64,000 bases of DNA from Candidatus Latescibacterota bacterium (GCA_965208835.1 OZ242358.1:3968001-4032000); one strand, 5' to 3'; positions 8,430 to 64,000 are shown, counted from the stretch's first letter. Numbers and translations are program-made. Notes: generated by a model from the sequence alone, not told the origin.

Positions 8430-9377
8430 ATGAACATACCCTTCGCGCAGGCCCTCGAGGTTGGCGATTTTTGCGCGATTCAGCGCGCGCCGAAAGCCGA
8501 CTTCCACCGCCACGCCTTCTTCGGAACGCGAATCGAGAATGTGGAGCGCTGGCTCGGTTACCCGCTGGAACGGCCGGCTTTTCCCATGCCCGGCCTTAAG
8601 GCCATGGATGACTACGCCGCCAGAGTCCTGGGGCCCCACATCAGTTCGCGAGAGGCCTTTGAATTTACGGCGGCGGCGGCGATCGGCGACGCGATTGAAG
8701 ACGGCGTCCGATGCCTTGAGATGAGCTTCGACGTGCGGTCTGTCAGCCACTTCGAGGGCGGTTTCGCGGAATTCGCGACCACCATCCAGAACTTGACGGA
8801 GCGATTTCGCGACCGGATCGATCTCAGGCCGGAGCTCGGCATCCCGCGTGAGATTGTCGGTGACAGGGAGATGGTCCGTCGCATCCACGCGGGAATCGAG
8901 TCCGGCGTCTTCCTGTCGATCGACCTCTATGCCGACGAAAACGCGTGTTCGGTCGACGCCGTGATTCCCATCTACAGGAATGCAAGTTCAGCCGGAATGA
9001 AATTGAAGGCGCATGTTGGCGAATTTGGCGGGGCCGAACGCGTACGGGAGACGACGGAAGTCCTGGAGCTGGACGAGATACAACACGGCATCGCGGCAGC
9101 TGAATCGCCCGGAGTGATGCATTGGTTGTCAAAAAACCGGATTCGACTTCACGTCTGCCCGTCCAGCAATGTCATGCTGGGCGCCGTGGACTCGCTCCCG
9201 TCGCACCCGATCCGCGTACTCTTCGATCATGGCGTGGAAGTGACCGTAAATACAGACGACCCGATGATCTTCGGGCAGAGCGTCTCGCAGGAATACCTCA
9301 ATCTCTACCAGGCGAAGGTCTTCAGCGCCGACGAACTGGACGAGATTCGAGCCACGTCTCTCGCCACACGATCCTGA
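8430..9377 (+). CDS. Adenosine/adenine deaminase family protein
   Basis: PKADFHRH, HVGE, HG, CPSSN, VNTDDP motifs. Confidence 0.85.
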   Translation: MNIPFAQALEVGDFCAIQRAPKADFHRHAFFGTRIENVERWLGYPLERPAFPMPGLKAMDDYAARVLGPHISSREAFEFTAAAAIGDAIEDGVRCLEMSFDVRSVSHFEGGFAEFATTIQNLTERFRDRIDLRPELGIPREIVGDREMVRRIHAGIESGVFLSIDLYADENACSVDAVIPIYRNASSAGMKLKAHVGEFGGAERVRETTEVLELDEIQHGIAAAESPGVMHWLSKNRIRLHVCPSSNVMLGAVDSLPSHPIRVLFDHGVEVTVNTDDPMIFGQSVSQEYLNLYQAKVFSADELDEIRATSLATRS

Positions 9378-9489
9378 CGGGCTACCGTCGGGTTTACGCA
9401 AGCGGACACGCATTCATCCCGTCAAAGGCCGGCATTGCCTGCGTAACACGGACTGCGGTGGCAGCGGGGTCAGAGAACGGAGAAAAACA

Positions 9490-10470
9490 ATGCGAGAAAT
9501 CGTGATGTTCGGCGGCACGGCGCATCCGGAGCTGGCGGAGAACATCTGCAGCCACCTCGGTGCAGCCCGCAGCCGCAGCACGCTGAATCAGTTCAGCAAC
9601 GGATGCTTCCAGGTGCAACTCGAGGCCAACTGCCGGGAGGCCGACGTCTTTCTCATACAACCGATGGTGATGCCGGTTCACGACCATCTGATGGAACTGT
9701 TGCAGATGCTTGACGCCGCCAGGGGCGCATCGGCGGCGCGTACGACGGCCGTGATCCCCTATTTCGGCTATGCGCGATCGGACAAGAAGGACGCGCCCCG
9801 GATCTCAATTGCGGCCCGGCTCGTTGCGGACCTGCTTTGCACGGCCGGCGCCAGCCGCGTGCTCACCATGACGCTGCACGCGGCCCAGGTGCACGGCTTC
9901 TTCAGCGTACCTGTGGACCACCTCAACGCGCTCCACATTTTAGCCGGCCACTTTCAGGGTCGCGACCTTGAGAATACCGTGGTGGTGTCGCCTGACCTTG
10001 GACGGGCTAAAGAAGCCGCCCACTTCGCCAGGATGCTGGGGCTGCCCGTGGCCGCGGGCAGCAAGCGCCGGATCAGCGACCGGGAGGTCGTTATCGACGC
10101 GATTGTAGGCGACGTCAACGGCAAACGCGTGATCGTCCTGGACGATGAGATCGCCACCGGCGGTACGATTGTCGAATTGATCCGCCGTCTACGCGAGCGG
10201 AGAGTTAACCAGATCACCATCACCTGCACACACGGACTCTTTTCGAGCAATGACCTCGAGCGATTCTGCGCATTGGACGAAGTCCGGGAGGTCGTGACGA
10301 CGGATACGGTGCCCCGGTCCGCGGCGATTCAGTCGCACGAGAAACTGACGACTTTGTCCGTGGCGCCCCTGCTTGCCGAAGCCATTCGCAGGATTCACAA
10401 CGGCGAGTCGGTCAGCAGCCTGTTCACCGAACCCGAATGGATCGCGGAAGACGAATCCGGGAGCGCGTAA
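9490..10470 (+). CDS. prs: Ribose-phosphate pyrophosphokinase
   Basis: IPYFGYARSDKK, VVSPDLG, LDDEIATGGT, CTHGLFS, AEAIRRIH. Confidence 0.93.
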   Translation: MREIVMFGGTAHPELAENICSHLGAARSRSTLNQFSNGCFQVQLEANCREADVFLIQPMVMPVHDHLMELLQMLDAARGASAARTTAVIPYFGYARSDKKDAPRISIAARLVADLLCTAGASRVLTMTLHAAQVHGFFSVPVDHLNALHILAGHFQGRDLENTVVVSPDLGRAKEAAHFARMLGLPVAAGSKRRISDREVVIDAIVGDVNGKRVIVLDDEIATGGTIVELIRRLRERRVNQITITCTHGLFSSNDLERFCALDEVREVVTTDTVPRSAAIQSHEKLTTLSVAPLLAEAIRRIHNGESVSSLFTEPEWIAEDESGSA

Positions 10471-37665: not shown

Positions 37666-37847
37666 GTAGAGGCGACCCGCAGGTCGCCCCTACAGAGAGG
37701 AGGATCTCGGCGATCCGATCTGGTACGAATATACAAAAGGGGGAGGCGGGACTCAACCCGTTCCCCTTTGAATTCGAAAGGCAATCGTGAGATCATCCGG
37801 GTCATTAGGTCAAATCAGACGCAGGGCGACCGGCCGGTCGCCCCTAC
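37666..37847. repeat. REP pair (GTAGGGGCGACCGGCCGGTCGCCCCTAC-type) downstream of the RAYT gene
   Basis: Palindromic copies at 37666-37693 and 37821-37847. Confidence 0.8.
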
Positions 37848-37860
37848 AAAACGATGGGTT

Positions 37861-38424
37861 TCAACATTCCGCTACGACAGGATTCTCCGGGTCTTCCGGC
37901 CATCTGACCGGGTTTTCCCCGATGTATTGCCGAATCCTATTTAAGCTAGACTGATTCCTGATTACGTGGTCGTAGTAACTGCGCTGCCAGACCGCCGCAC
38001 CCGGCGTGCCGCGGAACGAGTTGATGCGTTTGGTTACGGAAGACTTGAACCCTGCCATAAGTGCGCCAAGTGACCTGGCGTGTGGCCCTCCAGGAGCGAC
38101 CGGCCGCTCTGTCCCCTTTCGTTCGTCATTGAGCATGACGATTCCGTGAATATGGTTGGGCATCACAATCCAGGCGTCCAATTGGACTTCACTGCGGACT
38201 TGTGCAGACTTCAACCATTCCTCGGCGGCGATCCGCCCCAAGTCGTTTAGCTGCGTCTCAGCGTCGACCACTTCGCCAAAAAGCAGCTCCCGTCCGAACG
38301 TGCAAGCCGTAATAAAGTAAGCTCCTTTACGAGAATAGTCATATTTCCGCAATCGGAGCGACTGACGACGACGTTTTCCAGGATAGAAAGAAGCGTTCGC
38401 TATCATCTCGGTGTTTTGAAACAC
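37861..38424 (-). mobile_element. REP-associated tyrosine transposase (RAYT, Y1 HUH family)
   Basis: RRQSLRL..YDYS..GAYFIT.CT, VMPNHIHGI (HUH), FKS, WQRSYYDHVIRN, YI.ENP.RW. Confidence 0.9.
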
Positions 38425-38464
38425 GTAATCTCGTCACGATAGTATGCAAGCGATCAATTTCGGC

Positions 38465-38492
38465 GTAGGGGCGACCGGCCGGTCGCCCGTAC
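38465..38492. repeat. REP copy upstream of RAYT
   Basis: GTAGGGGCGACCGGCCGGTCGCCCGTAC; further copies at 39764-39790 and 40684-40707. Confidence 0.8.
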
Positions 38493-38958: not shown

Positions 38959-39101
38959 GTCCAAACTTCGGCGATAGAAGCGGCAATCGGCAAGTCGAAA
39001 TAGACGGGTTCTTAGGTAGGTCGCTCAAGAGGACGACACTAGCGGGACTCAGGTGCAGCCTGTCGCTAGCCGGATGTTAACCAAGCAGATTGGAGGAAGT
39101 G

Positions 39102-39767
39102 ATGCGTACACTCTTGGTATTCCTCTCGATGACGTTTGCCTCGATTCAATTCGCACAGGCGCAGCCGGCAGATGTCGCGAGTCATGTTGCGGCGCTTAAA
39201 GGCAAGACGTTCTGGCTGAAGATCGCTTTTGTAGAGGTGAACGACGGGATTCGGGGCATCGATGCCGCAAATGTCCTGGAGAACGGCGAAGTTTCGTATC
39301 GCGCAACAATAGGTGGTTTTCGCCAGTCGCAATCCCAGTCGGCCGAGGATTTCGCCGAAGAAGTCCGGAATATAGTTATTCGGGATGAACTTTCCGGTTG
39401 GAGCGTGCGGGTTATTGAAAGGGGCGCGAAAGCTGTCATCCGAAAAGCCGAGGCAAGGGAGAAAGAGGTCTATATAGAACTCGACAAGCTGTCAGGCGCC
39501 CGGCATGCCGTTCGCCTTAAAGTCAATAGAGACAATTATACAATTGCCGAAGTCGATCGCCTCTTCAAGATTGCCTTTGCCGCAAGCGAAGCGAAACTGG
39601 CAGGTTCGGAAGCAACCGTGCTACTTGAGATGAATATGTCCATCGAGGAAGTAATCGACCGCAAAGGCAAGCCCGGAACGCGCATTGAACTCGGCACCAA
39701 AACCATTCTCGCCTATGATGGCCTGAAGCTGATATTCACGGATGGGAAGCTGGTGGATGCGCAGTAG
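39102..39767 (+). CDS. Secreted hypothetical protein
   Basis: Signal peptide ending AQA; GGAGG RBS; SmpA/BamE-like C-terminal pattern (MSIEEV...GKP...F.DGKL). Confidence 0.6.
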   Translation: MRTLLVFLSMTFASIQFAQAQPADVASHVAALKGKTFWLKIAFVEVNDGIRGIDAANVLENGEVSYRATIGGFRQSQSQSAEDFAEEVRNIVIRDELSGWSVRVIERGAKAVIRKAEAREKEVYIELDKLSGARHAVRLKVNRDNYTIAEVDRLFKIAFAASEAKLAGSEATVLLEMNMSIEEVIDRKGKPGTRIELGTKTILAYDGLKLIFTDGKLVDAQ

Positions 39768-39964
39768 TGCGACCGGCCGGTCGCCCCTTCAGGCATCATT
39801 GTGGGTCCGAGACGGACCACGCTTCGCAGACCCTTTACACCGGATTGCTCTCGCCGGTTCCCTCGCTATAGTACGCCGTCCCCACATTGTAAATCGCGTC
39901 GCGCCTCTGGCAATACCCGTTTCTGCTCAAGGCGCGCTGCGCGTTTAAGGCGATGTCTCCATCC

Positions 39965-40186
39965 TCATTCTGATCCAGGATCCTCACCAGGTTCGTTTCG
40001 GCGCGGGGCGCAGACACGTTCCGCATCCGCCGCTTCCCACGCGGCCAGTTGTTCCGCGGTGGGCACATACAAGCCTGCTCTCCTGTAGTCGTCATCACTA
40101 AACGGCGTGCCGCCGGCATGCCAGGCGCGGCCGACGATCGGGTCAGTGAATCTTGAACCTCCCGGAGCGGGGTTTCGTTCGTCCAT
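39965..40186 (-). CDS. Repeat-flanked mini-protein (WHxDGTP family), 73 aa
   Basis: DPIVGRAWHAGGTPFSDDDYRRAGLYVPTAEQLAAWEAAD; ATG 4 nt after the repeat. Confidence 0.75.
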   Translation of the reverse strand: MDERNPAPGGSRFTDPIVGRAWHAGGTPFSDDDYRRAGLYVPTAEQLAAWEAADAERVCAPRRNEPGEDPGSE

Positions 40187-40193
40187 GATAGTT

Positions 40194-40418
40194 TCAATCC
40201 TTGTTCTGAAGGTGGACTTCGTCCGGTCCGACCCGCGGGCCTTCGTCAGTGTCGTGCTTGGCTTTCATATCGTCAATCAGTCGCTCGGTCTCGGCCCAAT
40301 GGGCAAGCTGTTCCGGGGTCGGAACGGGCAGGTTCGCCCGGCGATAGTCGGCATCGGAGAAGGGCGTGCCGTCCGGGTGCCAGCACTGAAAGCCGGCGGA
40401 GTCTTGTCTGTTTCGCAT
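40194..40418 (-). CDS. Repeat-flanked mini-protein (WHxDGTP family), 74 aa
   Basis: CWHPDGTPFSDADYRRANLPVPTPEQLAHWAETE; ATG 4 nt after the repeat; stop is the TGA of the next repeat's ATTGAAAC. Confidence 0.78.
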   Translation of the reverse strand: MRNRQDSAGFQCWHPDGTPFSDADYRRANLPVPTPEQLAHWAETERLIDDMKAKHDTDEGPRVGPDEVHLQNKD

Positions 40419-40477
40419 AGCTGTTTCAATCCCTATTCTGTTTGAAGGTCTCCGCCGTGCGAGCCGGCGACGAACGC

Positions 40478-40604
40478 TCAGCCCTCCACCCGGTTGTACC
40501 TCCGCAACTCCTCCCGCAGCCGGTCATGCGGAAGCGCGCACAATATCACTTCGTTGAATTCCTTCATCTACTCGCCCGCCGCGATCATTTCGACCGCGAC
40601 AAGA
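40478..40604 (-). pseudogene. Possible 3' remnant of a DmpA/P1-type aminopeptidase gene
   Basis: Reads ...ALPHDRLREELRRYNRVEG*, resembling that family's C-terminus; in-frame stop upstream. Confidence 0.3.
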
Positions 40605-40803
40605 TAAATCCGATATGTCGCAGGAATTGCGACAATCAGGTTAAAAAACCTACCATCGGCGGTGCGCTGTCAGCTGAAGGTTCGGGCCAACGGCCGGTCG
40701 CCCCTACCTAACGGTTATTGTTAAACCAGCTTCCAGGCTGGCGGGTGCCGACACTGACGAGCATACAAAAGCGATCTCTTTCGCTGAATTCTCAATCGTG
40801 CGC

Positions 40804-40850
40804 TTGACAACGTATTCCGTTCGTTTATATTGTTATGTTATAACATAACA
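40804..40850 (+). promoter_or_regulatory. Sigma70 promoter with Zur box
   Basis: TTGACA (40804) and TATATT (40826) followed by the perfect 20-bp palindrome TGTTATGTTATAACATAACA (40831-40850), upstream of zinc-uptake genes and zur. Confidence 0.85.
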
Positions 40851-40987
40851 TCATTCAATCGTAGAGGACGACCCGCCTGTCATGAAACCAGCCGCAACCT
40901 GGCCTGTATCGACAGCCTCTACATCACGCCAGGCCGCGGGCGATCAGCCCGTTGAACTGCACCAGAACCTCGACTCCGGCGTAAACC

Positions 40988-41153
40988 TAACAGCCCGTTG
41001 AAAAAGTCCATCCGGGCTACGGCCGGCCCTTGCGGTCGAAATACTGCGTTGTGCTCCCTCGCCGAATCGCAGGATGGGACTCGGTCGCGCGCCTTGTCTT
41101 CGACCACAATGGTTCGGCCTCGCCTGCAGAGCGACTTTATCAACGAACTGCTA
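40988..41153. mobile_element. MITE-like element (~165 bp), TA-flanked
   Basis: TAACAGCCCGTTGAAAAAGTC ... GACTTTATCAACGAACTGCTA inverted ends; second copy at 4016-4120. Confidence 0.75.
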
Positions 41154-41253
41154 AGCCCGTGGCAAAAGCCAGCCCAAATGCCGCCTCAACCGGCATCAAT
41201 GAAAGCGGCGGCGATGGCCTCGGCATTCGGTTTTCTGAAACGGTGACGATTTG

Positions 41254-52625: not shown

Positions 52626-53149
52626 TCAGCAGTCTGGCGTACCTGACCCGCGCCACGGCGTCAAACGTGGCCACCAGCGGCGCACGTTCAGGCAGTAGGT
52701 CTCGTTCGACCCCCGAATCTTTCTCGGAGTTTCGGCTCTTCATAAAGCAGCACGGTCAGGTGGAACGCGGCGAGCATCACCCCGGCGTACGCCGCAAGCC
52801 GGGCCCGGCCAAACAGTAGCGCCTGCCCTGAAATGATGATCAGCACGGAGATGTACATCGGGTTTCGCACGAACCGATAGAGGCCGGAAGCGACCAGCAT
52901 TTCGGTTTACGCCACCGGCGCCGGTGTGCCGCGCCCCTCGAGGACGAAACGGGCGAAGCAGTCCAGCAGGCAGGCCAGACCCGTCGCAACCGCCGCAACC
53001 CCCATTAATCGCTCGCCGGGCAACCCGAGCAGCAGTGGCTGTATCGTCCAGCCGACCAGTGCGAACGGGACGACACCGGCAACGACAGCCGGAGCGACCC
53101 AGAAGAAGACGAACGACCCGACGATCGCACGCGTACGTGTGCGCTTCAC
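52626..53149 (-). pseudogene. Isoprenylcysteine carboxylmethyltransferase/PEMT family gene, frameshifted
   Basis: GRGTPAP | LVASGLYRFVRNPMY...YEEPKLRERFG | YCLNVRRWWPR split over three segments with an in-frame stop. Confidence 0.75.
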
Positions 53150-53187
53150 GTTTCAATCCTTGTACTGATGGGAGTGACCAGAGATCG
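53150..53187 (-). repeat. Solitary CRISPR-like repeat unit
   Basis: GTTTCAATCCTTGTACTGATGGGAGTGACC on +, same family as the 40191, 60109 and 60337 repeats. Confidence 0.7.
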
Positions 53188-53292: not shown

Positions 53293-56200
53293 TCAATATT
53301 CCGGTGGTGAGAGATCGATCGCCCATTCTTTGAACTTCGAGACGTTGACGTCGGATCGGTCGAGGAGTGTAAGGAGTTCCTCCTGGCGGGGTTGCCCAAA
53401 GACAACCCGGTAGGCTGCGAGTTGACGTTTGAGGCGTACGAACGCTTCGACCTCCGTCGTGTATGGCAATAGTGGTACATGGCGCTGCACGAAGCAGTCT
53501 CCGGGGGCGATCCAGTGAGGTACCAGGTCGCTTTTCCCGGCGGCTCGCGCAGCCTGGTCGGCCAGCGCGAACATCTGTCTCCAGATATCTTCACCCGCCC
53601 TCCATGACGTCAAGGCGTCGTGCGCGTGGCGAGCAGCGACGTTTCGCCGGACCGCATGGCCCTTATAACGGTGAATCCGGCCTTCGCGTTGCTCAAGATC
53701 GACCGGATTGCCCGGAAGGTTCCAGTGGACCAGGGAGTGACACCACGGATGGAAGTCGAGCCCCTCCTGTCCAATCGACGTACTGGCAAGCACAAACGGC
53801 CGAAACGGGCTATTGAAAGCGTCCCTCACGACGTCCTGGCTGATGTGATCACCTTCGTCCGTTCGGATGTGGCCGAAGCGTAGCGCGAACGCCGTGCGAA
53901 GGCGGGTTACTTCGAGTTCAGGCTTTGTTCCACTTCCTCCCGCACCTTCTGTCTCAAAGAACCTCGCATGGACGCGAGAACGCATTGGACGTACAACCTG
54001 GATGAGTTTGCGGGCGCATCTGCCGGCGATCTCGTCACCGCTGGCGTCGCCGGACCACGACTCCTGGTCCCACAGCAGGTGCCACTGCTCGTCAAGTACT
54101 GCCTGCAGGTTCCCGTGGCGGCAGTAGCGAAGTACCAGTCGCCAGTAGGCCGAACCATCGCGCTCTTCCGCTCCTCTGTCGGCAAGCTGGCGCAGCAGCG
54201 CCGTCACGGCAGGCTGATTGAAGAGACGCCAGAACGCGACTGCAATCATGGCCGCGAACCGGCGACGTGAATCATCGCCAATTCCCGTCCCGTTTCTCAG
54301 GCTGCGTGCCGCGAGAATCGCCGGCGAACCAATGGCGACCTCGGTGAGCAATCTCGCAAGATTTGCCGGACGCCGGCCGAGTTTTCGCGGATCGACCCTG
54401 AGCAGATCGTCGATGTACGCACCGAAGCCTTCCGGATTTGGACGACCCGTGTCATCCGATAATCCAGGAAGTTCGCCATCCGCCCACGTGCCAAGAAAAC
54501 TGCGCAGATCCGGATCCATCAACAGCGGCGCCATCCACTCCCACCTGTCATCAATATCTCCTTCTTGCGGGTTAGGAAGCTTCGGATCGGCAAGAAGTTC
54601 GTCGACCCGGTCTCGCACCCACGCCCGGCGATCCTGTCCAGACCGAAAGTCCAACGGATGCGCCCGGTCCGCCAGCGGAAGGCACGGTATGAGCAGCAGC
54701 AGGAGACGATGGCGGGAAAGGCCGCCCAATTTCGACTTTGCGAGCCTTAAAAGTGGTCTCTGCTGCTCGGCAAGTTTCTCATATGACCCATTCCGGCCAC
54801 GCGTCATCAGTCGTTCAGCTTCGTAGCTTAGTACGGCGCTGACAACGTCGGGCACCACGTTCCAAGCCGAAAACAACAGGCGCTTCGTTGCTTTTTCCTT
54901 GCCCTTGAAGGGTCCTTCAAGCGGCCAGTACGGAAGCGTCGGCGGCATCCAAAGAAGGCGCCATATCCCCTTGTCGATCAACTCCCCGACCAATTCACGC
55001 AGCTTGGCACTTCCGGGGTCGATGCTTTCCCACCTACGTATCGTCGCTGGCGTCAAGAACGCCGACTTATGTTGCTGAAGAACCTCGACGATCTTTCCCG
55101 GCGTGTTAATTGCCTCGTCGAGTAGTTCGTTGAACCTGTAACCTCGCATGAAGTGAGCCAAATACGGAGCTGATTTCCAAAACGGCATCGGATCGCGGTC
55201 ACCGACGGCCCGAAACAACGCGTCGGCGGCCAGGTACTGGCGCACGTCGGTTGAGGTCACGGTCGCGTTACTCGGGACCTCTGCCACCATCGCGTCATTG
55301 TCTTCACTGGCTGCGACGCGCTCGGATCGCGCCATCACGTTCCTGAGCGTTCCTTCGACCTCGCGTTTCGCTTGTTCGACTCGCCCCGGCCCATCCGGTT
55401 CTCCCGCTGCCGCGCGCTTTAATGCTGACCCGAAACGCGAGAACTGGCTCTTAATCTCTTCGACAACCGCGTCATCGTCGCCATACAAGAACCTTGTTGT
55501 GGCCAGGAAGTCCTCGTAGTGGTCCTCGTGTTCGATCTCCGCATCTGCGGTGTAGAGTTTGTACGGCGTCGCGGAGAGCAAGAGCGTCCGCACACGCTTA
55601 CCGTCGTGCGCTTTGGCCTGGAACAACTCATGAGCCAGGTGCGCCGCGGGGTCTCGCTCGCCGTCACTTGTGTCGAGCAGCGACTTAAAGCGCTGGAACT
55701 CGTCCAGGATTACGAGGTCGGGCTCCAGGGCCTTGACGCACACTTTGGCGAGTACCCGGCGCAAATCCGATATAAGCCGGTCTCGCCGGTACCGCAGATC
55801 GTCCGGCCAGTAATTCCGGTAGTAGCCGAACGCACTCAGGATTTCTCTAAATCTGTACTCCAGACCGTGGCACTCATGAAACGCATTCTCAAACCTTCGC
55901 CGTATTGAGTCTTCGATAGGTCGGGGGCGGTTGTTGAGGAACCATCGCCAGTCATCCCGGTTCGTAATCCATCCCTGCAGGAAATTCATAAGCGCCGTGC
56001 GCCGTTCGGTCAGGGGATCGAGCAGTTGAAACAGCACCTCCCGTTCCGGGCGCTGGCCGGCGGATTGCCCCATGTTGAAGGATGTTCCCGGCGTGAAACT
56101 GACGAAGTTCAGCTTGCTGTCGACGAGACCTGGTTCGCCTTCCTTACGCGCCAGTTGCGTGGCCAACATCGTGAGACGTGTCGCCAATGCGAACGACCGT

Positions 56201-56487
56201 TCTTCGGCGCCTCCGATCCTCAGCTTTGGGAGATTGGCTCGTGCGATGCCGGCATTGCTGCAAATGTAGATGATGTCGATCCGTTTGACGTCGTCCCAGA
56301 GGTGATCGATGGCGCGCGCAATGATACCGCGGGCGACCAGCGTCTTCCCAAGGCCCACCTCGTCGGCCACCAGGAAGCGTCCTGTACTGTCTTCCGCAGT
56401 GAACAAGCGGTGGAAGGCATGTTCTACTGTCCGCCGTTGGAAGGATTTGAGTGGTTTAAGACCCGCGTCTACCGATGGACGCTTCAT
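53293..56487 (-). CDS. SF2 helicase of a putative Azaca-like defence operon
   Basis: RFLVADEVGLGKT, ILDEFQRF, LLSATPYK, AFNSPFRPFVLASTSIGQEGLDFH, DLEQREGRIHRY. Confidence 0.85.
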   Translation of the reverse strand: MKRPSVDAGLKPLKSFQRRTVEHAFHRLFTAEDSTGRFLVADEVGLGKTLVARGIIARAIDHLWDDVKRIDIIYICSNAGIARANLPKLRIGGAEERSFALATRLTMLATQLARKEGEPGLVDSKLNFVSFTPGTSFNMGQSAGQRPEREVLFQLLDPLTERRTALMNFLQGWITNRDDWRWFLNNRPRPIEDSIRRRFENAFHECHGLEYRFREILSAFGYYRNYWPDDLRYRRDRLISDLRRVLAKVCVKALEPDLVILDEFQRFKSLLDTSDGERDPAAHLAHELFQAKAHDGKRVRTLLLSATPYKLYTADAEIEHEDHYEDFLATTRFLYGDDDAVVEEIKSQFSRFGSALKRAAAGEPDGPGRVEQAKREVEGTLRNVMARSERVAASEDNDAMVAEVPSNATVTSTDVRQYLAADALFRAVGDRDPMPFWKSAPYLAHFMRGYRFNELLDEAINTPGKIVEVLQQHKSAFLTPATIRRWESIDPGSAKLRELVGELIDKGIWRLLWMPPTLPYWPLEGPFKGKEKATKRLLFSAWNVVPDVVSAVLSYEAERLMTRGRNGSYEKLAEQQRPLLRLAKSKLGGLSRHRLLLLLIPCLPLADRAHPLDFRSGQDRRAWVRDRVDELLADPKLPNPQEGDIDDRWEWMAPLLMDPDLRSFLGTWADGELPGLSDDTGRPNPEGFGAYIDDLLRVDPRKLGRRPANLARLLTEVAIGSPAILAARSLRNGTGIGDDSRRRFAAMIAVAFWRLFNQPAVTALLRQLADRGAEERDGSAYWRLVLRYCRHGNLQAVLDEQWHLLWDQESWSGDASGDEIAGRCARKLIQVVRPMRSRVHARFFETEGAGGSGTKPELEVTRLRTAFALRFGHIRTDEGDHISQDVVRDAFNSPFRPFVLASTSIGQEGLDFHPWCHSLVHWNLPGNPVDLEQREGRIHRYKGHAVRRNVAARHAHDALTSWRAGEDIWRQMFALADQAARAAGKSDLVPHWIAPGDCFVQRHVPLLPYTTEVEAFVRLKRQLAAYRVVFGQPRQEELLTLLDRSDVNVSKFKEWAIDLSPPEY

Positions 56488-58319
56488 GATCGTGGCTCCG
56501 GTGCGATTGCCTCCTCGACTGCCGTCCAAATACTGAATAGTTCGTCTGGCACGATCAGGCGCCCTTCTTCAGTCTTCCGAAGTTCGTCGATCAGGCGACG
56601 TACCGGCTTCAGGCGATCGGGGTCTCGGGACGCGGTACGGACGAGATCATCCAGCAAGGTCTCACCGCTCTGCCCTATTCCCCAGTTAGAGGAAGGTTCT
56701 CCTTCTCCGCTATCTTGCGCCCAGCCGAGTACAGTGTCGAGTCCGCCCAGCAACGCCCTCAGGAAACGAAGGAACTTCTCAGGGGTGTCCAGCAATCCCT
56801 TGAGTACGTGATGCATGCGATCTTCAGGCATACCGTGAGCCGGAAGTCGCAGGGTCATGCGGACGTCGTCCACGCCCTGGACGTTGACACTCAGCCGAAA
56901 GGCGATGAATGCCGTCAGACGCACAATGGGCAGATTCCAACTGATCGTTTTCTCCAGGCGCAGTGCTTGATCTTCGGCTACGGAGACGGGCCAGGCTTCG
57001 ACCTGGACATCGTCGGCCATTTGAAATTCGGGCCCGGTGATAGCCAGCGTCCATGAGTCGCCTGAGGAACCGCATCTCACTTGCAGGTTAGAATTCAAGA
57101 GGTCGTCCCCCAAGGCTTCAAGGCGTTTTCGGGCAGCGGCGATGGCTGGGTCTTCTATCTCCGGATCGACTCTCTTATACTTCATGCACAGCTTCCGAAA
57201 TCCGGCGTCAAGGAACCTATCGATGCCCTGACCGCTGTGGCCCCCTTTGCGTCCCTTCTTTCCCGTGATGGATGCAACCATTTCGACGTTTCTGCCATTG
57301 AACGCCGACGCTGTCAGGTTGGCGGAACCGACGTACCACGTAACGTCCCAACGGTGCTCCACGGCGATCATCTTGGCGTGCAGCCCCGACGGGCGATCAA
57401 TCCCGCCAGTCATCGGTTCGTTCTGCTCAGCCAGACTTTCCTCGGGCTCCCCATGCGCGGTATCCCTAAGGACGAATACATCGTTCCATTCCGCCAGTGC
57501 ATCTTCAGCGAGTCTGTCGAGTTCCTCCTGCCTGCTCACGAGCATTCGGTCGTTACCGCTCAACTCCCTGACGACCCCCAGTCCGGTCCGACTGATGAAC
57601 GGCGCCACCGCAAGTGTTCGATATCCATTCGACGGCGGTCGCCAGTGACGGCGACGCCTGGACAATCCGATTGAATGGAATTCGACAGGAGATGCGAAGC
57701 CGTCCGGGGCGGGAAACCTGATTCGTGAAACCTGATCGGCAAGTGCATCAATGCGATCGGCGACATCCGTGAGAACCGGGTTTACGGCCAGACGAGGTAG
57801 CGCTTCGAGGAATTCACGGAGTGGTCGGCTGACGGCCGCACGCCTCCTGCCCCGAAGCCGCGCCTCGCTCGCGAGCGCAACGTCCCACGAACGGTCAAAT
57901 GTCAGATTGCGCGACAGGATTGCAACGCGCAAAACGTCTTCGGCATCCTCCCCCGAGGCAACAAACCGAGCCGCCCACACCTTCGGGTGGAATGCGCCAC
58001 CGTTTGGGGCGCGTACGGCATGCACACTCGGCTCGAGCATTGAGTACAGAGGTCTCACGTTGCGTGGAATTGCAATGCCCGTTTCATCAACAAACACGTG
58101 GATACGGTCGCCAGCGTCACGGATCGCCTGGTGCAGCCTCAGTGGATCTTGAAGCAACTCATTCAACCCTTCGTCCGTATGCGCGAGCACCGATAACGGA
58201 AGCAGCAGCATCGTTTCCAGATCCAGGGTATAGGTCGTCAGTACAGCAAAGTCGAGGTCGTATCCGCTCGGCGGGCGGAGCAACTCGAAGGCTGTGGTAC
58301 GCGATTCGGGCGATAACAT
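56484..58319 (-). CDS. Phospholipase D-superfamily (HKD-like) nuclease of the putative defence operon
   Basis: LRPPSGY.LD.AV.TTYTLDL, FHPKVW...SRNLTFDRSWD, LHAKM...GSANLT; overlapping start/stop codons on both sides. Confidence 0.8.
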   Translation of the reverse strand: MLSPESRTTAFELLRPPSGYDLDFAVLTTYTLDLETMLLLPLSVLAHTDEGLNELLQDPLRLHQAIRDAGDRIHVFVDETGIAIPRNVRPLYSMLEPSVHAVRAPNGGAFHPKVWAARFVASGEDAEDVLRVAILSRNLTFDRSWDVALASEARLRGRRRAAVSRPLREFLEALPRLAVNPVLTDVADRIDALADQVSRIRFPAPDGFASPVEFHSIGLSRRRRHWRPPSNGYRTLAVAPFISRTGLGVVRELSGNDRMLVSRQEELDRLAEDALAEWNDVFVLRDTAHGEPEESLAEQNEPMTGGIDRPSGLHAKMIAVEHRWDVTWYVGSANLTASAFNGRNVEMVASITGKKGRKGGHSGQGIDRFLDAGFRKLCMKYKRVDPEIEDPAIAAARKRLEALGDDLLNSNLQVRCGSSGDSWTLAITGPEFQMADDVQVEAWPVSVAEDQALRLEKTISWNLPIVRLTAFIAFRLSVNVQGVDDVRMTLRLPAHGMPEDRMHHVLKGLLDTPEKFLRFLRALLGGLDTVLGWAQDSGEGEPSSNWGIGQSGETLLDDLVRTASRDPDRLKPVRRLIDELRKTEEGRLIVPDELFSIWTAVEEAIAPEPRS

Positions 58320-59530
58320 CAGGCGGCCAACCCCCTGTGAAGGTCGGTGAGAAACTGCCGGACGCGAACCCAGCGAAAGTCCATCCGACCAACGCCGACC
58401 CATGGTTTCCACTCCATCAGGCGACTCCGGTTTCCAAGTCGTGCGCGTGCTCCCTTCAGGTGTGACTCGCGTTCGGTAACCAACTCTCTTAACTGTTGGT
58501 CGTTGGCGATCCTGCCGGCATTCAACTTGGTAATGTGTCGAGACCAATCTTGAATGAAGAGTCGTTGGTGATGTGGAGCAAGCCCGCCGCGTCGAGCTAC
58601 CAATTCCCAGAGCGGATCCGGATCGAATGGTTGAGCTTCTTCCGCCTCACGCCCCGCCCATTCAGTGAGCTCTGCACGGAACGAACTGATTAATTCGCCA
58701 TCATCGTCAGTGTCAAGCATCTCGCGACGGTGTTCGGCCACAACCAGATTGTAGAGCAGTGGCATGCCCTCGACGTGTAGAGAGAACCGCCGGGCTAGTT
58801 CCACGGTATCACGAATACTCTGAGGTGCGCGGAGGGCGTCCGGATCGTCCCAGAAGTCGTCCCCGGGCGAATCGGATCCATTGCGGGCCAGCCACGCCAG
58901 CAGGGCACCGGCGCAACGTTCCTCCAGGCGGCCGAGAAGGAAGTCGGCCTCGTCACGGTTCAACGCGAAGGATGCCTCCCACGGAAAGCCAGCCGGCGGC
59001 GACGGCATACGCGGATGCCAGTGCGCATCACGGCTCCAGATAACGCCTGGATCGTCCGCCCGCCCCACACTGCCGCGGCCATCCGCAAGCGCGTCAAAGT
59101 GCGAGTGGTACCAACTCAGGCTCTGCTGCGGCCTAAAGATGCCCCATCGAGTCAGCGCGCTCCAGTATATCGAACTTGGTAACCGGACGAGTGAGTGGCG
59201 GGCGTATACGCCGATGATGCCCTTCTTGTCTTCGCCCTGTTCCAATCGTCCGATAAGATCGACTTCCGCCTGACGCGCGGCTCGCTCCACGTCTACACTC
59301 CTTACCCGACGCGTCTCCAACCTCCGGTAGATCCATGGAATGAGGAGTACATAACGCAGCCGCGTCTGGATATAAGACGTGCCGGGAAAAAGTGCGTCAG
59401 AGATCGCGTCCCGTAGGTTTCCGAGCCCCATCTCGTCGAGCGTGCCCTGCTCGTTGAACAGGTCCAGCACCCGCCGCATCTTGTCGCGGTCGCCCGCCGT
59501 CAGGTCGAGCCAGGTCAACGTCGCCTGCAT
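58319..59530 (-). CDS. DUF6361-like protein, first gene of the putative defence operon
   Basis: LTWLD...GTLDEMGLG.LRDAISD.LFPGTS.IQTRLRY.L.IPW, PSSIYWSAL..WGI, E..LKG.RARL, FRW. Confidence 0.75.
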   Translation of the reverse strand: MQATLTWLDLTAGDRDKMRRVLDLFNEQGTLDEMGLGNLRDAISDALFPGTSYIQTRLRYVLLIPWIYRRLETRRVRSVDVERAARQAEVDLIGRLEQGEDKKGIIGVYARHSLVRLPSSIYWSALTRWGIFRPQQSLSWYHSHFDALADGRGSVGRADDPGVIWSRDAHWHPRMPSPPAGFPWEASFALNRDEADFLLGRLEERCAGALLAWLARNGSDSPGDDFWDDPDALRAPQSIRDTVELARRFSLHVEGMPLLYNLVVAEHRREMLDTDDDGELISSFRAELTEWAGREAEEAQPFDPDPLWELVARRGGLAPHHQRLFIQDWSRHITKLNAGRIANDQQLRELVTERESHLKGARARLGNRSRLMEWKPWVGVGRMDFRWVRVRQFLTDLHRGLAA

Positions 59531-59557
59531 TGCGTGAGTCCTTGTACTGATGGATTC

Positions 59558-59749
59558 CTACCGGGAACCGCCGGACTGACGACGTCGACGCGCACATTCA
59601 GCATCGGCCTTTGCCCACAGAGTGAGCTGGGAGAGCGTAGGCACAGGCAGGCCGGCGTTGCGGTAGTCCTGGTCACGGTAAGGTGTCCCGTCCGCATGCC
59701 AGCACCGGCCTGGGCCACCTGTCTGTTTGTCGACGACTCGCTTGGTCAT
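59558..59749 (-). CDS. Repeat-flanked mini-protein (WHxDGTP family), 63 aa
   Basis: GGPGRCWHADGTPYRDQDYRNAGLPVPTLSQLTLWAKADA; ATG 4 nt after the repeat. Confidence 0.78.
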   Translation of the reverse strand: MTKRVVDKQTGGPGRCWHADGTPYRDQDYRNAGLPVPTLSQLTLWAKADAECARRRRQSGGSR

Positions 59750-59756
59750 ATTGGTT

Positions 59757-59960
59757 TCAATCCCCGTTCTGATGAAAGATCCCCAACGGGTTTTGTCTTT
59801 CCGCTTCAGCCCAGGCTAATAGCTGTTCATCCGTTGGGGGAGTCAATCCCGCCTTGATGTAGTCGGCTTTGTTGAAGGGCGTTCCGTCTTCATGCCAAGC
59901 CTGACCAACAATCGGATCGGCCATTTTTCTGCCTTTGGTGATGTTGGGATCTCTTGGCAT
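59757..59960 (-). CDS. Repeat-flanked mini-protein (WHxDGTP family), 67 aa
   Basis: DPIVGQAWHEDGTPFNKADYIKAGLTPPTDEQLLAWAEAE; own AAGGAAGG RBS; stop inside the repeat. Confidence 0.78.
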   Translation of the reverse strand: MPRDPNITKGRKMADPIVGQAWHEDGTPFNKADYIKAGLTPPTDEQLLAWAEAERQNPLGIFHQNGD

Positions 59961-60111
59961 GTCAAACCTTCCTTGATTCGGCGTTTATGATTATGGGAGC
60001 GTCTAATTTTGATTCTTTGGCGTCTTGCCAACCGTCAAGGCAGGCTTTCATGGATGCACGGGAAAAGGTTGGGCCGTTTCTGTAATTTGTGCGCTTGTCG
60101 CTGTAGGGATT

Positions 60112-60332
60112 TCAATCCTTGTTCTGATGGAAGATCCCCAACGAGTCGACCTGCTGGCGCTGGTCGTCTTGGGCCCACTCGAGCAGCTGCTTGGCCGTGG
60201 GACAACCTGTCCGGCACGGCGATACTCTTCCAGTGTGCAGGGTGTACCGTCCTCACGCCACATACGAGAGATGCCGCCTGACTGTCTGTTTGGGCCTTTG
60301 ATGAGGCGGAATCTTCTTGGTCGCTTGGGCAT
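60112..60332 (-). pseudogene. Repeat-flanked mini-protein (WHxDGTP family) with a 1-nt frameshift
   Basis: MPKRP...MWREDGTPCTLEEYRRAGQVVP / TAKQLLEWAQDDQRQQVDSLGIFHQNKD*; shift near 60198-60202. Confidence 0.7.
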
Positions 60333-60394
60333 GCTGGTTTCAATCCTTGTTGTGACGGAAGATACTCGCAGGGCACCGGCCACTGTTTTTGTTT

Positions 60395-60610
60395 TCAATC
60401 CGCTCCCCTGCGCGGGGAGCGACTGGAGTTGCCCGAGGACTGACGCCGCCGCGCTCGCCGAGCATCGGCGCGAGCCCAGAGCATGAGCTGGAAGAGCGTA
60501 GGTACAGGCAGGCCGGCCTTGCGGTAGTCCTGGTCACTGTAAGGTGTTCCGTCGGCATGCCAGCAGCGGCCTGGGCCGCCTGTGTGTCTGTCAAGGATTC
60601 GCTTGGGCAT
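60395..60610 (-). CDS. Repeat-flanked mini-protein (WHxDGTP family), 71 aa
   Basis: MPKRILDRHTGGPGRCWHADGTPYSDQDYRKAGLPVPTLFQLMLWARADA; ATG 5 nt after the terminal I-C repeat; stop inside the I-C-like repeat. Confidence 0.78.
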   Translation of the reverse strand: MPKRILDRHTGGPGRCWHADGTPYSDQDYRKAGLPVPTLFQLMLWARADARRARRRQSSGNSSRSPRRGAD

Positions 60611-60615
60611 GCGGT

Positions 60616-62360
60616 GTATCACTCCGCGCCCCCGCGTGGGGGGCGACCCAAGACCCGAGACGTGGGCGGTATGGCTTTCGTGTTTCAATCCACGCCCCCG
60701 CGTGGGGGGCGACGTCCGGCTGCTGCCGGCGTCAGGATAACGCGGTCGTTTCAATCCACGCCCCCGCGTGGGGGGCGACGTATATGTTGGAAAACCTTTG
60801 GTTCTTTGTCTGTTTCAATCCACGCCCCCGCGTGGGGGGCGACAGACCGGCCCGACTTCGATGTGCGGGATAGGGTTGTTTCAATCCACGCCCCCGCGTG
60901 GGGGGCGACTGTGACTACTGCCATACGCTATCCGAATCGACCGGTTTCAATCCACGCCCCCGCGTGGGGGGCGACAGATTCACTCTCAAGCGGGGGAGTC
61001 CAATCAAATTGTTTCAATCCACGCCCCCGCGTGGGGGGCGACCGCCATCAGAGGCGGCACACGCACCTCCATCTTGTTTCAATCCACGCCCCCGCGTGGG
61101 GGGCGACGTGTCAATCGTTCCGCCGAAAAACAAATCCGGGTGTGTTTCAATCCACGCCCCCGCGTGGGGGGCGACCTGGGCCGTATCCGTGACGACCCGC
61201 AGCCGGTTCTGTTTCAATCCACGCCCCCGCGTGGGGGGCGACTGACCATACGGCAGTTTTTCGCCGCCGTTGCCATGTTTCAATCCACGCCCCCGCGTGG
61301 GGGGCGACCCCGCCTGGGTTCCGCCAAACAGACGCCTGACAAGTTTCAATCCACGCCCCCGCGTGGGGGGCGACCCTGATACGATCAAACCACATTCACC
61401 TATTAAGGTTTCAATCCACGCCCCCGCGTGGGGGGCGACTCAGGATCTCGGCGTCATCATCCAGAGATCGGAGTTTCAATCCACGCCCCCGCGTGGGGGG
61501 CGACCAGCATATCGAAGACGCCATCAACCAGGCACTGGAGGTTTCAATCCACGCCCCCGCGTGGGGGGCGACAGCCGGAGAAGTTTGTGCGCCGCATCTT
61601 CGGATGTTTCAATCCACGCCCCCGCGTGGGGGGCGACACACGAAATATCCGGGCCATCCCTACGAGTTTATGTTTCAATCCACGCCCCCGCGTGGGGGGC
61701 GACGAGGTATCGGAGGCCAAAGTCCTTGATGCCAAGGTTTCAATCCACGCCCCCGCGTGGGGGGCGACCGGAGGCTACCGCGGCGGCGGAGGACATCCTA
61801 TTTGTTTCAATCCACGCCCCCGCGTGGGGGGCGACTCACGGGCAAGAGAACGGGCGGCGGGCCGGGCAAGAGTTTCAATCCACGCCCCCGCGTGGGGGGC
61901 GACCTTGTACGTCGCCTCGAGCAGCTGGCGGGCCGTGTTTCAATCCACGCCCCCGCGTGGGGGGCGACTGGCCTCCCGGCTCTCTTTCGCTATGCTGATT
62001 AGTTTCAATCCACGCCCCCGCGTGGGGGGCGACCCAGCCGGCGGGCCAGGGTCTGGACGTGGGTCTGTTTCAATCCACGCCCCCGCGTGGGGGGCGACAC
62101 CCTCGTCAGACAGTACCCGGGCAGAGTATGAGTTTCAATCCACGCCCCCGCGTGGGGGGCGACCAAACACATGGATCAAACTCTGTAGTAAATATAGTTT
62201 CAATCCACGCCCCCGCGTGGGGGGCGACATCGGAATGAAATCCGAATGCCGGATGCTGGAGGTGTTTCAATCCACGCCCCCGCGTGGGGGGCGACGATTG
62301 TGGGCAAAGACAACCAGATGGACGGTTTGTTTCAATCCACGCCCCCGCGTGGGGGGCGAC
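60616..62360 (-). CRISPR. Type I-C CRISPR array, 27 repeats and 26 spacers (about 32-36 nt)
   Basis: 32-nt repeat GTCGCCCCCCACGCGGGGGCGTGGATTGAAAC (minus strand) at ~66-nt period; degenerate terminal copy at 60616-60647. Confidence 0.97.
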
Positions 62361-62546: not shown

Positions 62547-62837
62547 TCACACAATCAATGTTCCGTTCAAGTCGGTCGCCGGCTTGGCACCAATGTGCTC
62601 TACACGTCGCTTCCAATTAGCACCAAGGAAATAATATCTGAGACTGTCGGTTTCTAAATTGATGATCGCCTCAAGCTGGGCACTTAAAGCGGCCCATTGC
62701 GCGGGCTCCACCTCAATCTCGAACACAGAAAACTGCACTCTTTGTCCAAAATCGCGACATATCTTAGCGACACGACGTAAACGACGTGCGCCGCCATCGG
62801 ATGTCGTCGAGACGTCGTACGTAACGAGAACCATCAT
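62547..62837 (-). CDS. cas2: CRISPR-associated endonuclease Cas2
   Basis: MMVLVTYDVST...GARRLRRVAKIC..FGQRVQFSVFE...DSLRYY.LG. Confidence 0.96.
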   Translation of the reverse strand: MMVLVTYDVSTTSDGGARRLRRVAKICRDFGQRVQFSVFEIEVEPAQWAALSAQLEAIINLETDSLRYYFLGANWKRRVEHIGAKPATDLNGTLIV

Positions 62838-62899: not shown

Positions 62900-63934
62900 T
62901 CATTTCCATAACCACGGCGGGTGGGCATCTAAGTCGCCTCGAAGATGCCGAGCCAGCAATTGTGCTTGGAGATATGGAACTAAACCGAGCGGTGCCTGCT
63001 CCCCAAGAAAGGGATGGCGACGCTCTACACGCTTTCGCTCCTGCCATGCACTGAGAACCGTTTTGCGAGCGGCATCGCTCATTGAGACGCTGCCGCCTTC
63101 TCGAACTTGGAAGTCCTTAGCGCGTATTTGCCGACGATTGACTAGCGATAGCACAAGCCGATCAGCCAAGACGGGTCGCAGCTCTTCCATAAGGTCTAGC
63201 GCAAGACTCGGACGGCCGGGACGATCTCTATGAAAGAAGCCCACTGCCGGATCCAAGCCAACGCTCTCGGCGGCAGAGTTGCAGTCGTGAACGAGAAGCG
63301 TATATAGAAATGAAAGCAGGGCATTCACAGGGTCACGTGGTGGCCGACGGTTGCGACCTGCAAATGCCATCTCTGGTTCGGGTACGCGGATCAGGAGACC
63401 AAAGAACGAAAAATAGAGCCGTGCGGCCTCGCCTTCAAAACCTCGTAGTCTATCAACACTGTCGTGGCCGTCGCTAATGCGTTGCACAATCTGCCGCAGG
63501 CGATTTGTGGCGACGGACATAGCTTCTCGGCTAGAAAGCTCAAGTTGGTCTCCATAGTCGCGCTGCGCTCTTTGCAAGACGGCTCTCTGATTAGCGATCT
63601 TGCCGACGAGAATGCTGCGGACGATTTCTTCCGGTGTGTCGCTGACTCTATATTGTGCGCGACGCAGCAGTACATTGCCAGAAACTGGACCCTCGACTCG
63701 GGCTTGGAATCGGCCGAATCGACTTAGGAGTACTAAGACGATGCCACCGGCAGCGCAGGCTTGGATCAGAGGTGGAGATATATAGATGCTGCCGAACACC
63801 ACCACCGACCCCAGCATGTGGAACGGAACCCTCACACGTTCCTCGCCCTCTACTTCCGCGACCAGATTCTCGCCGTCCTTGGTCAGACGTGCTTCAGGCG
63901 TAGTAACGTATAGCGTATTGAGCAACCGCCTCAT
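62900..63934 (-). CDS. cas1: CRISPR-associated endonuclease Cas1 (type I-C)
   Basis: MRRLLNTLYVTT, GPVSGNVLLRRAQY, LRGFEGEAA, RNRRPPRDPVNALLSF.Y, GRPSLALDLMEE.R, LARHLRGDLD. Confidence 0.96.
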   Translation of the reverse strand: MRRLLNTLYVTTPEARLTKDGENLVAEVEGEERVRVPFHMLGSVVVFGSIYISPPLIQACAAGGIVLVLLSRFGRFQARVEGPVSGNVLLRRAQYRVSDTPEEIVRSILVGKIANQRAVLQRAQRDYGDQLELSSREAMSVATNRLRQIVQRISDGHDSVDRLRGFEGEAARLYFSFFGLLIRVPEPEMAFAGRNRRPPRDPVNALLSFLYTLLVHDCNSAAESVGLDPAVGFFHRDRPGRPSLALDLMEELRPVLADRLVLSLVNRRQIRAKDFQVREGGSVSMSDAARKTVLSAWQERKRVERRHPFLGEQAPLGLVPYLQAQLLARHLRGDLDAHPPWLWK

Positions 63935-64000
63935 GGGTGTTCTCCAGACTCGGCAAGGTGCGACGATAGAGTGCGGGTTCGCCAAGCGAGAACCGAATGT
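63931..64000 (-). CDS. 3' end of the upstream gene, probably cas4 (partial)
   Basis: Open frame ending in an ATGA overlap with cas1; identity inferred only from the usual I-C gene order. Confidence 0.4.
   Translation of the reverse strand, partial: HSVLAWRTRTLSSHLAESGEHP

Follow-up and report, generated by a model that had tools for sequence, protein, structure and literature searches.

Two short genes and three CRISPR-like repeat units lie together on the minus strand at positions 39955-40459 of the window, that is, the whole 64-kb stretch of Candidatus Latescibacterota DNA analyzed here, taken from a genome of 5.18 Mb (Table 1). Read from the sequence, the order is repeat (psiR1), 74-aa ORF (mini-gene E), repeat (psiR2), 73-aa ORF (mini-gene F) and a degenerate third repeat (psiR3), the arrangement and common strand being those described in an earlier note on this DNA. 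The ATG lies 4 nt past GATTGAAAC in both units: psiR1 ends at 40423 as ..AGAATAGGGATTGAAAC, followed by AGCT and the start codon of E, and psiR2 ends at 40191 as ..CAGAACAAGGATTGAAAC, followed by TATC and the start codon of F, bearing out the claim of a spacing of exactly 4 nt. The final codons and the TGA stop of E fall within psiR2, this TGA being located 7 nt ahead of the ATG of F, and the tail of F runs into psiR3, which ends at 39955.

The three direct repeats belong to one family and match the type I-B consensus to the extent given in Table 1. They are set apart by intervals of about 232 nt that contain the homologous ORFs, with no unique spacers of 25-50 nt at a regular period; the true arrays used for comparison have periods of 64-68 nt and 72-77 nt. 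The nearest cas gene is cas2, about 22 kb off. The cluster is as free of canonical spacers and of nearby cas genes as had been noted, and it does lie between two REP copies, with a further REP (37823-37844) at the other end of the segment 37848-40746. The gene represented by a C-terminal remnant at 40478-40567 is present in full length in locus L027, where it follows a repeat and ends in ..YNREEG.

Table 1. Features of the repeat and mini-gene clusters and of the CRISPR-linked island in the window
Feature	Position	Strand	Description
REP-type palindrome core	39774-39787	-	Downstream boundary of the cluster; sequence scan
psiR3, repeat-like unit 3, degenerate	39955-39985	-	23/31 consensus positions, by-eye count; nothing coding 3' of it
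Mini-gene F, 73 aa	39965-40186	-	Paralog of E (48% identity); tail ..EDPGSE from psiR3 in another reading frame
psiR2, repeat-like unit 2	40191-40227	-	24/29 consensus positions; contains the TGA stop of E
Mini-gene E, 74 aa	40194-40418	-	Family core WHxDGTPF..DY..A..PVPT..QL..W; last residues HLQNKD and stop encoded by psiR2
psiR1, repeat-like unit 1	40423-40459	-	Degenerate 37-nt type I-B repeat; 3' end GGGATTGAAAC; 22/29 consensus positions
Remnant of another cassette gene	40478-40567	-	29-aa C-terminal part; full gene in L027
REP-type palindrome core	40691-40704	-	Upstream of the cluster, near the 40746 end of segment 37848-40746
I-B-type repeat unit	53150-53178	-	Downstream of ZacC; abuts (0 nt) the GTG of a PEMT/ICMT-like membrane gene
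Azaca genes ZacA, ZacB, ZacC	53293-59530	-	Between the first mini-gene cluster and the PEMT/ICMT-like gene
Degenerate repeat unit ..CATCAGTACAAGGACTCACGC	59532-59556	-	1 nt ahead of the ZacA ATG
First mini-gene cluster, A-D	59558-60610	-	At the trailer end of the I-C array; I-B-type units end at 60337, 60109 and 59754
Mini-gene D	59558-59749	-	From sequence
Mini-gene C	59757-59960	-	From sequence
Mini-gene B, frameshifted	about 60115-60331	-	From sequence
Mini-gene A	60395-60610	-	Flanked by two I-C-type degenerate repeats
Resident type I-C array	60616-62360	-	26 canonical 32-nt hairpin repeats and a degenerate terminal repeat; leader upstream
cas2, subtype I-C	62547-62837	-	PADLOC
cas1, subtype I-C	62900-63985	-	PADLOC

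The frequency of the repeat in the genome was determined by motif searches. With at most one mismatch, GTTTCAATCC was matched 39 times in the 64-kb window against 4.1 matches expected, and none of 100 shuffles reached 39. The 18-nt core of the repeat occurs six times in the 5.18-Mb genome, every time within the window, while the reversed control does not occur. E and F aligned with the peptides of the 60-kb copies in 16 invariant columns, and a profile of the five peptides recovered them from the whole genome with E-values of 5e-33 and 3e-30, confirming that both clusters share the same peptide motif. There are six real profile matches (six to seven loci) in the genome and none outside the window, so the proposed genome scan for repeat plus peptide motif placed every copy within it. 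Chance and array decay were ruled out by the repeat excess, this genome-wide exclusivity and the conservation of the repeat described below.

A possible misassembly was also considered. A contig of 8639 nt from run X1, which may be the source sample, covers 39800-41015 with 0 differences. The E-F tandem is also carried by a shorter contig (608 nt) of a different study (X5), which spans 40035-40432 and shows 16 differences over these 398 nt. These contigs bridge the cluster and showed no sign of misassembly.

Repeat type, cas context and the surrounding island

The repeats of the E/F cluster are not those of the neighbouring array. They are degenerate 37-nt repeats of type I-B, whereas the array is of type I-C with a 32-nt hairpin repeat, and the short repeat has only the 3' end GGATTGAAAC in common with the resident I-C repeat. 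A true array of 65 repeats with this 37-nt sequence is present in congener G015 (counted from the G001 rows), 46 of which are in L020 with a period of 72-77 nt, downstream of cas6b-cas8b-cas7b-cas5b-cas3b-cas1b-cas2b-cas4b. Since this array lies beside I-B cas genes, the short units of the window are degenerate type I-B repeats. The genome to which the window belongs carries a complete I-C operon, and Cas6b was not found in it with either the G015 protein or PF01881, indicating that the I-B-type repeats of this genome have no detectable cognate nuclease. Most of the genomes carrying the units are without cognate cas genes. A third kind of repeat, of hairpin I-C type, makes up an array in G019, and solitary copies of it are present in the islands of several congeners. 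Folding z-scores of the I-B-type repeats ranged from -0.3 to 1.5, indicating that they are unstructured, and no Rfam family reached the gathering score between 38 and 64 kb.

In L020 the mini-gene run ends in the array's own trailer sequence, and the same was seen at L019 9608 and L021 14088. This match is consistent with the mini-genes having originally stood in the last spacer positions, an arrangement directly seen in the window. No duplicate of the G015 array leader adjoining the mini-gene clusters was found.

The E/F cluster lies 19 kb beyond the first mini-gene cluster and about 20 kb from the array. In eight of the ten Cas1-bearing genomes the mini-genes are on the contig and strand of cas1, at distances of about 4-26 kb, and in the islands of the genus they stand among co-oriented Nmad3, GmrSD, Azaca, ParA-like, toxin-antitoxin and WYL genes, the cassettes being co-directional for about 10 kb downstream of the arrays. 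From the array to ZacA, the minus strand showed no terminator-like site. A sigma-70 scan of this strand revealed no promoter upstream of E, but it also failed to find one in the known array leader and is thus uninformative in this phylum.

A Zn/Ni/CobW cluster of 12 kb lies between the E/F edge and the rest of the island in the window. In G015 a repeat and a truncated mini-gene are found beside the ortholog of the 225-aa gene located at 39090-39767 in the window, about 3.7 kb from the main cluster and with no metal-transport genes between. In G014 position 37847 is joined to 40746, the whole REP-bounded segment 37848-40746 being absent. G016 and G011 retain the flanks and lack E and F, and in G016 the place between that left flank and that REP is taken by an unrelated gene of about 170 aa. 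The loss in G014 and the absence of E and F from G016 and G011 indicate that E and F form a cassette that can be replaced, located on the island's distal edge. Gain, loss and replacement of cassettes thus occur at this slot. The suggestion that the units were duplicated or mobilised, or that one array was split, agrees with this synteny, namely the location of the truncated mini-gene in G015, the loss in G014 and the replacement in G016. On the other hand, the direct junction of 40.46 kb to 53.15 or 59.54 kb that the earlier note had envisaged was seen in no relative examined.

Conservation of the mini-genes and of the repeat-gene junction

The five peptides matched no Pfam, PADLOC or PHROG profile. 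A word-indexed search yielded 42 unannotated clusters of 56-121 aa, among which P0002, P0005, P0007 and P0021 are the close relatives of F. In examples such as P0033, P0038 and P0017 the annotated N-terminal extensions are merely translated repeats, and several C-termini of the family (..FHQNKD) are encoded by the repeat. An HMM search of 1.84 billion representatives gave 80 hits, about 45 of them small proteins; about 30 hits in long proteins match only DGTP-like stretches of some 10 residues and were regarded as spurious. Two other hits are fusions of 451 and 464 aa, in which the motif stands between an N-domain without assignment and an HTH-like C-terminus; this architecture says too little to point to a function.

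The AlphaFold model, comprising a short hairpin and two helices, one short and one long, had a mean pLDDT of 73, with core residues 10-55 near 90. With this model (pLDDT 73) as the query, Foldseek gave no match in the PDB at E<=0.001; the best Z in a wide VIA search was 2.7, and the ESM Atlas returned no usable match. As judged from substitution rates, the mini-proteins are under purifying selection and the genes are real: dN/dS was 0.05-0.53 in the 34 computable of the 37 pairs examined, and E compared with its L015 ortholog gave a dN of 0.10, a dS of 1.9 and a dN/dS of 0.05.

The family is present in 12 of the 14 other genomes of the genus, which consists of sponge-associated Latescibacterota, in one of seven genomes from the rest of the family and in none of 39 from the rest of the class. 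MAGs of the genus are labelled Latescibacterota, two being labelled Gemmatimonadota, and the runs that contain the region carry sponge or marine metagenome labels, none of those listed being recorded as RNA. Distant relatives occur in MAGs of Binatia, Chloroflexota and Caldilineaceae, where a repeat precedes the gene in none of nine copies, and a metagenome scan added only five further loci, one of them with the repeat+ATG junction. Among 50,697 phage records, IMG/VR contigs and PHROGs no relatives were found; a phage origin was rejected, no relatives being present in phage records or IMG/VR.

In the loci of the genus, 23 of 29 copies, a count that includes the six copies of the window, begin 2-5 nt past a repeat end, a gap of 4 or 5 nt being the commonest; four copies do not and two are ambiguous. 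Copy C is without a repeat at its start, and about 15 solitary repeats in these loci have no gene after them. The junction is not confined to the mini-genes. ZacA is separated from its repeat by 1 nt in the window, L015 and L018, the PEMT gene by 0 nt in the window, L015, L017 and L018, and cas5c of G019 also by 0 nt. The repeat preceding the PEMT gene is of I-B type in the window and L017 and of hairpin I-C type in L015 and L018, the rest of the ZacC-PEMT spacer being homologous; similarly, copy A stands between I-C-type repeats and its paralog D after an I-B-type repeat. The junction between gene and repeat is therefore kept while the repeat type changes.

The repeat itself is conserved far above neutral sites. 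In 135 paralog pairs with less than 75% amino acid identity, drawn from 18 units picked for having a repeat, four-fold sites were 31-37% identical (saturated) and the 29-nt repeat 78-82%. This conservation extends along the whole 29 nt, beyond AAGGA, and could result from gene conversion instead of selection. Together with the presence of the family in most genomes of the genus and the recurrent 2-5 nt junction, it supports the earlier view that the repeat plus ORF is the conserved unit, not an accident of array decay; the anatomy of the cluster and its recurrence across genomes are matters of observation.

Congeners G007, G012 and G014, which have no Cas1, retain mini-genes, and the repeats are well preserved in the two of these genomes that were examined (L017 in G007 and L015 in G014), with 1-2 mismatches per 29 nt in G014. 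Since mini-genes and good repeats are kept without Cas1, a Cas-dependent role cannot be general, and the role of the repeat must be partly Cas-independent. Full-text literature searches returned no account of repeats joined to start codons across a conserved protein family, nor of genes regularly filling spacer slots.

Possible function and origin of the repeat-headed genes

On the comparisons above, the repeat probably helps to express the mini-gene that follows it. The explanation we favour has, taken as a whole, about an even chance of being correct. According to it the 39955-40459 cluster would be a detached, worn-down CRISPR mini-array with I-B-like repeats, its two spacer positions filled by paralogous genes for a small protein of about 60-75 aa, and would close off, at the far end, the CRISPR-linked island of co-directional cassettes that is typical of the genus. 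The repeat would act both as a selected 5' element (ribosome site plus coupling distance, processing or occlusion site) and as homology for exchange. Cassettes beginning 0-5 nt past the repeat 3' end GGATTGAAAC, that is, the mini-genes, ZacA, the PEMT-like gene and the cas5c of one congener, could draw on it in several ways. The repeat may supply the ribosome-binding purine run AAGGA, 11 nt ahead of the ATG, a spacing that exceeds the usual optimum, and with its TGA inside GGATTGAAAC the upstream stop would fall 7 nt short of the following ATG, so that translation could be coupled. In the presence of a cognate Cas6b or Cas5c, the repeat could be a processing or binding site at which read-through transcripts of the array are cut into single-gene mRNAs; a Cas cut that removes or occludes the start region would tie expression of the cassette to the state of CRISPR-Cas. 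The 10-nt core common to the I-B and I-C repeats probably also provides homology for the swapping of cassettes and repeat bodies.

It seems unlikely, but is conceivable, that the genes in spacer slots are a selected design. Pre-crRNA would then be a polycistronic mRNA, and cutting by Cas6b or Cas5c 8-11 nt before the repeat end would release or silence the mini-genes, either because the cut removes the AAGGA site or because the AUG, 4 nt inside the 'spacer', is covered by Cascade. Cells would then make the small proteins only with Cas missing or inhibited, a translational counterpart of CreTA/CRISIS safeguarding that would extend to Azaca and the other repeat-headed cassettes.

The repeats might also be functionless scars, which we regard as doubtful though possible. 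A mini-gene would have entered an ancestral array once, at its end, the units would have spread by tandem duplication and by recombination between repeats, and the conservation would come only from gene conversion with array repeats and recent cassette transfer. A single ancestral junction would account for the constant spacing of 4-5 nt, and decay is common: B is frameshifted, one L018 copy has an in-frame stop, psiR3 is degenerate and many repeats are solitary. In addition, the dS of 0.02 between D and its L018 counterpart points to recent exchange, and repeat bodies are visibly swapped in short patches. However, the repeats keep their 78-82% identity despite saturated synonymous sites, even in genomes with neither such an array nor Cas1, for example G014, and the 0-nt junction of the PEMT gene is retained under two repeat families. 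The exchange of cassettes could instead reflect an integron-like platform in which the repeat serves above all for DNA recombination, GGATTGAAAC being its core, and promoterless cassettes are shuffled downstream of the array promoter. As in integrons, the cassettes are small, promoterless and co-oriented, with a short conserved site between them; they are co-directional downstream of the arrays, their genes start 0-5 nt from the core, their content varies among congeners and is replaced at the E/F slot, and the repeat type ahead of an identical gene can switch. Nevertheless, no integrase or recombinase was present among the 92 + 17 neighbouring proteins scanned, the site is a CRISPR repeat that, in its I-B form, is unstructured, unlike the folded attC, and replacement at 40 kb had its boundaries at REP elements and some 14 nt ahead of the repeat instead of at the core. 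We regard this platform as quite unlikely.

Known standalone repeat units bear on two further explanations. Such units yield crRNA-like regulatory RNAs, as described for CreA of CreTA, CreR and the CRISIS crlRNAs (PMC10120712; bioRxiv 10.1101/2024.12.27.630466). The present units resemble them as degenerate repeat copies outside an array, near cas and defence or toxin cargo and conserved in relatives, solitary units beside cas and defence genes being a hallmark of CreA, CreR and CRISIS, and both type I-B and type I-C examples are known. If the solitary repeat likewise gave a crRNA-like RNA pairing with a promoter, Cascade would repress a toxin or defence gene and the mini-proteins would be toxins. 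The island does contain Azaca, Nmad3, GmrSD and toxin-antitoxin genes, and in G019 a repeat lies just before cas5c and after a foreign 429-aa gene behind cas3, which is the described CRISIS position. We nonetheless consider this very unlikely. The window differs in that the repeat abuts the start codon (0-5 nt) and what would be the spacer is the beginning of the following coding sequence, in having a single repeat per unit, the next being about 230 nt on, in runs of repeat-gene-repeat, and in the absence of cognate cas genes from most unit-bearing genomes. A search for promoter targets was also negative: ten spacer-like segments found only chance-level second sites in the 64-kb window (<=16/20 positions), scans of 34 kb of G015 and of L055 gave nothing, and promoter targeting by these segments was rejected, no target above chance being present in those three regions. 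The least probable explanation, to which we attach only a slight chance, is an anti-CRISPR locus of mobile origin, in which the repeats would be Racr-like RNAs, the proteins Acr or anti-defence factors, and repeat recombination would have placed them by the arrays. Racrs are solitary repeat units of viruses and plasmids that mimic repeats, and, like the units here, adjoin small protein genes (PMC10651486). The proteins of the present family are small, quickly diversifying and in tandem, and among the distant homologs L023 is beside Mu-F-like and portal-like genes and L024 among AbiEii and RES toxin genes. Yet the context here, unlike that of Racrs, is chromosomal and syntenic across the genus, with the units co-oriented with the array; matches in the phage and virus collections are lacking, the units persist in Cas1-less genomes, and inhibitors of their own system in most species are hard to square with intact arrays of 26 spacers and 65 repeats.

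Our favoured explanation, a selected 5' element that is also a site of exchange, bears on how repeats outside arrays are seen. Standalone repeats have so far been understood as sources of guide-like RNAs that repress promoters, whereas in this genus they directly adjoin the start codons of whole defence systems and of a small-protein family under selection, an arrangement that persists with either of two repeat families. A functional junction would be a direct post-transcriptional link from crRNA biogenesis to protein expression, and further CRISPR-linked cargo could then be sought by the simple rule that the ORF begins within 5 nt after a repeat. The family so defined is a CRISPR-linked small-protein family and a candidate toxin, regulator or anti-defence factor. 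Should the repeats be only scars, the locus would still document array ends seeding hypervariable defence islands.

The cluster also invites comparison with the degenerate repeats at the trailer end of a canonical array. Its direct repeats are of a real family, on the strand of the array, with the same trailer and with decay rising towards the end; on the other hand, its 'spacers' are about 195-235 nt long, mutually homologous and encode a selected protein, and it lies 20 kb from the array. In Campylobacter, a foreign gene, erm(N), is reportedly located inside a CRISPR array, and so, as here, a protein gene stands between CRISPR repeats. That case is an isolated insertion, whereas in the present genus a conserved family is welded to repeat ends across genomes.

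Repeats at the starts of neighbouring genes

The array and its mini-genes directly precede the Azaca genes in the window, where the ATG of ZacA lies 1 nt after a degenerate repeat. This arrangement recurs in loci L015 (congener G014) and L018. The repeat heading the PEMT/ICMT-like gene is of the I-B type in two genomes and of the hairpin I-C type in two others. This gene is broken in the window, its ORF being 80 aa long compared to 174 aa in relatives.

Features of the window and of other loci (L numbers)
Feature	Coordinates	Strand	Remarks
Azaca system (ZacA, ZacB, ZacC)	window 53293-59530	(-)	complete; PADLOC
PEMT/ICMT-like membrane gene	window 52740-53150; L015 14582; L018 15602; L017 (G007) 4174	(-) in window	start 0 nt after repeat
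429-aa gene	L055 (G019) 8603-10194 (with the repeat unit)		no known family; inserted between cas3 and cas5c of type I-C operon
Short sequence ending ATTGAAAC	L058 about 5088-5119		between cas3 and cas5c, resident I-C operon of the window's own genome
Mini-gene B	window 60115-60331	(-)	frameshift after about 45 codons
Degenerate I-B-type mini-arrays	L025 692-796; L028 294-470; L059 3147-3323		2 (seen), 3 and 3 repeats
Conserved trailer, beginning GCAGTGGTCGGTGA	L020 3456-3555 and 8215-8312; L019 9608; L021 14088		
REP-type palindromes	window 37823-38489, 39774, 40691		
170-bp repeated element	window 40986-41154		

The cas3-cas5c interval

In G019 the repeat unit that follows the 429-aa gene abuts the cas5c ATG. 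The position of this gene and repeat unit is the one reported for CRISPR-supervised immune systems (bioRxiv 10.1101/2024.12.27.630466). The L058 sequence could form a small hairpin and is a candidate regulatory repeat unit.

Mini-gene family and trailer

The C-terminal part typical of the family and the repeat-encoded tail of mini-gene B were recovered in a second frame. The core motif also occurs inside two larger metagenomic proteins, P0062 (451 aa) and P0063 (464 aa), flanked by a 290-aa N-terminal domain of no known identity and an HTH_73- or AbiEi-like C-terminus. The mini-arrays, with a period of about 73 nt, are each separated from an upstream mini-gene by a few hundred bases. The trailer was found after the true I-B array (L020, congener G015) and after mini-gene clusters alike, and its second half was seen again ahead of Nmad3 genes.

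REP palindromes and a dispersed element

The REP-type palindromes are grouped around a remnant (37861-38424) that has a weak IS200/Y1-transposase match and is possibly a RAYT. The segment absent from G014 is bounded by REPs at 37.83 and 40.70 kb. The 170-bp element has well over 100 copies, at 92-97% identity, among the matches listed across genus genomes.
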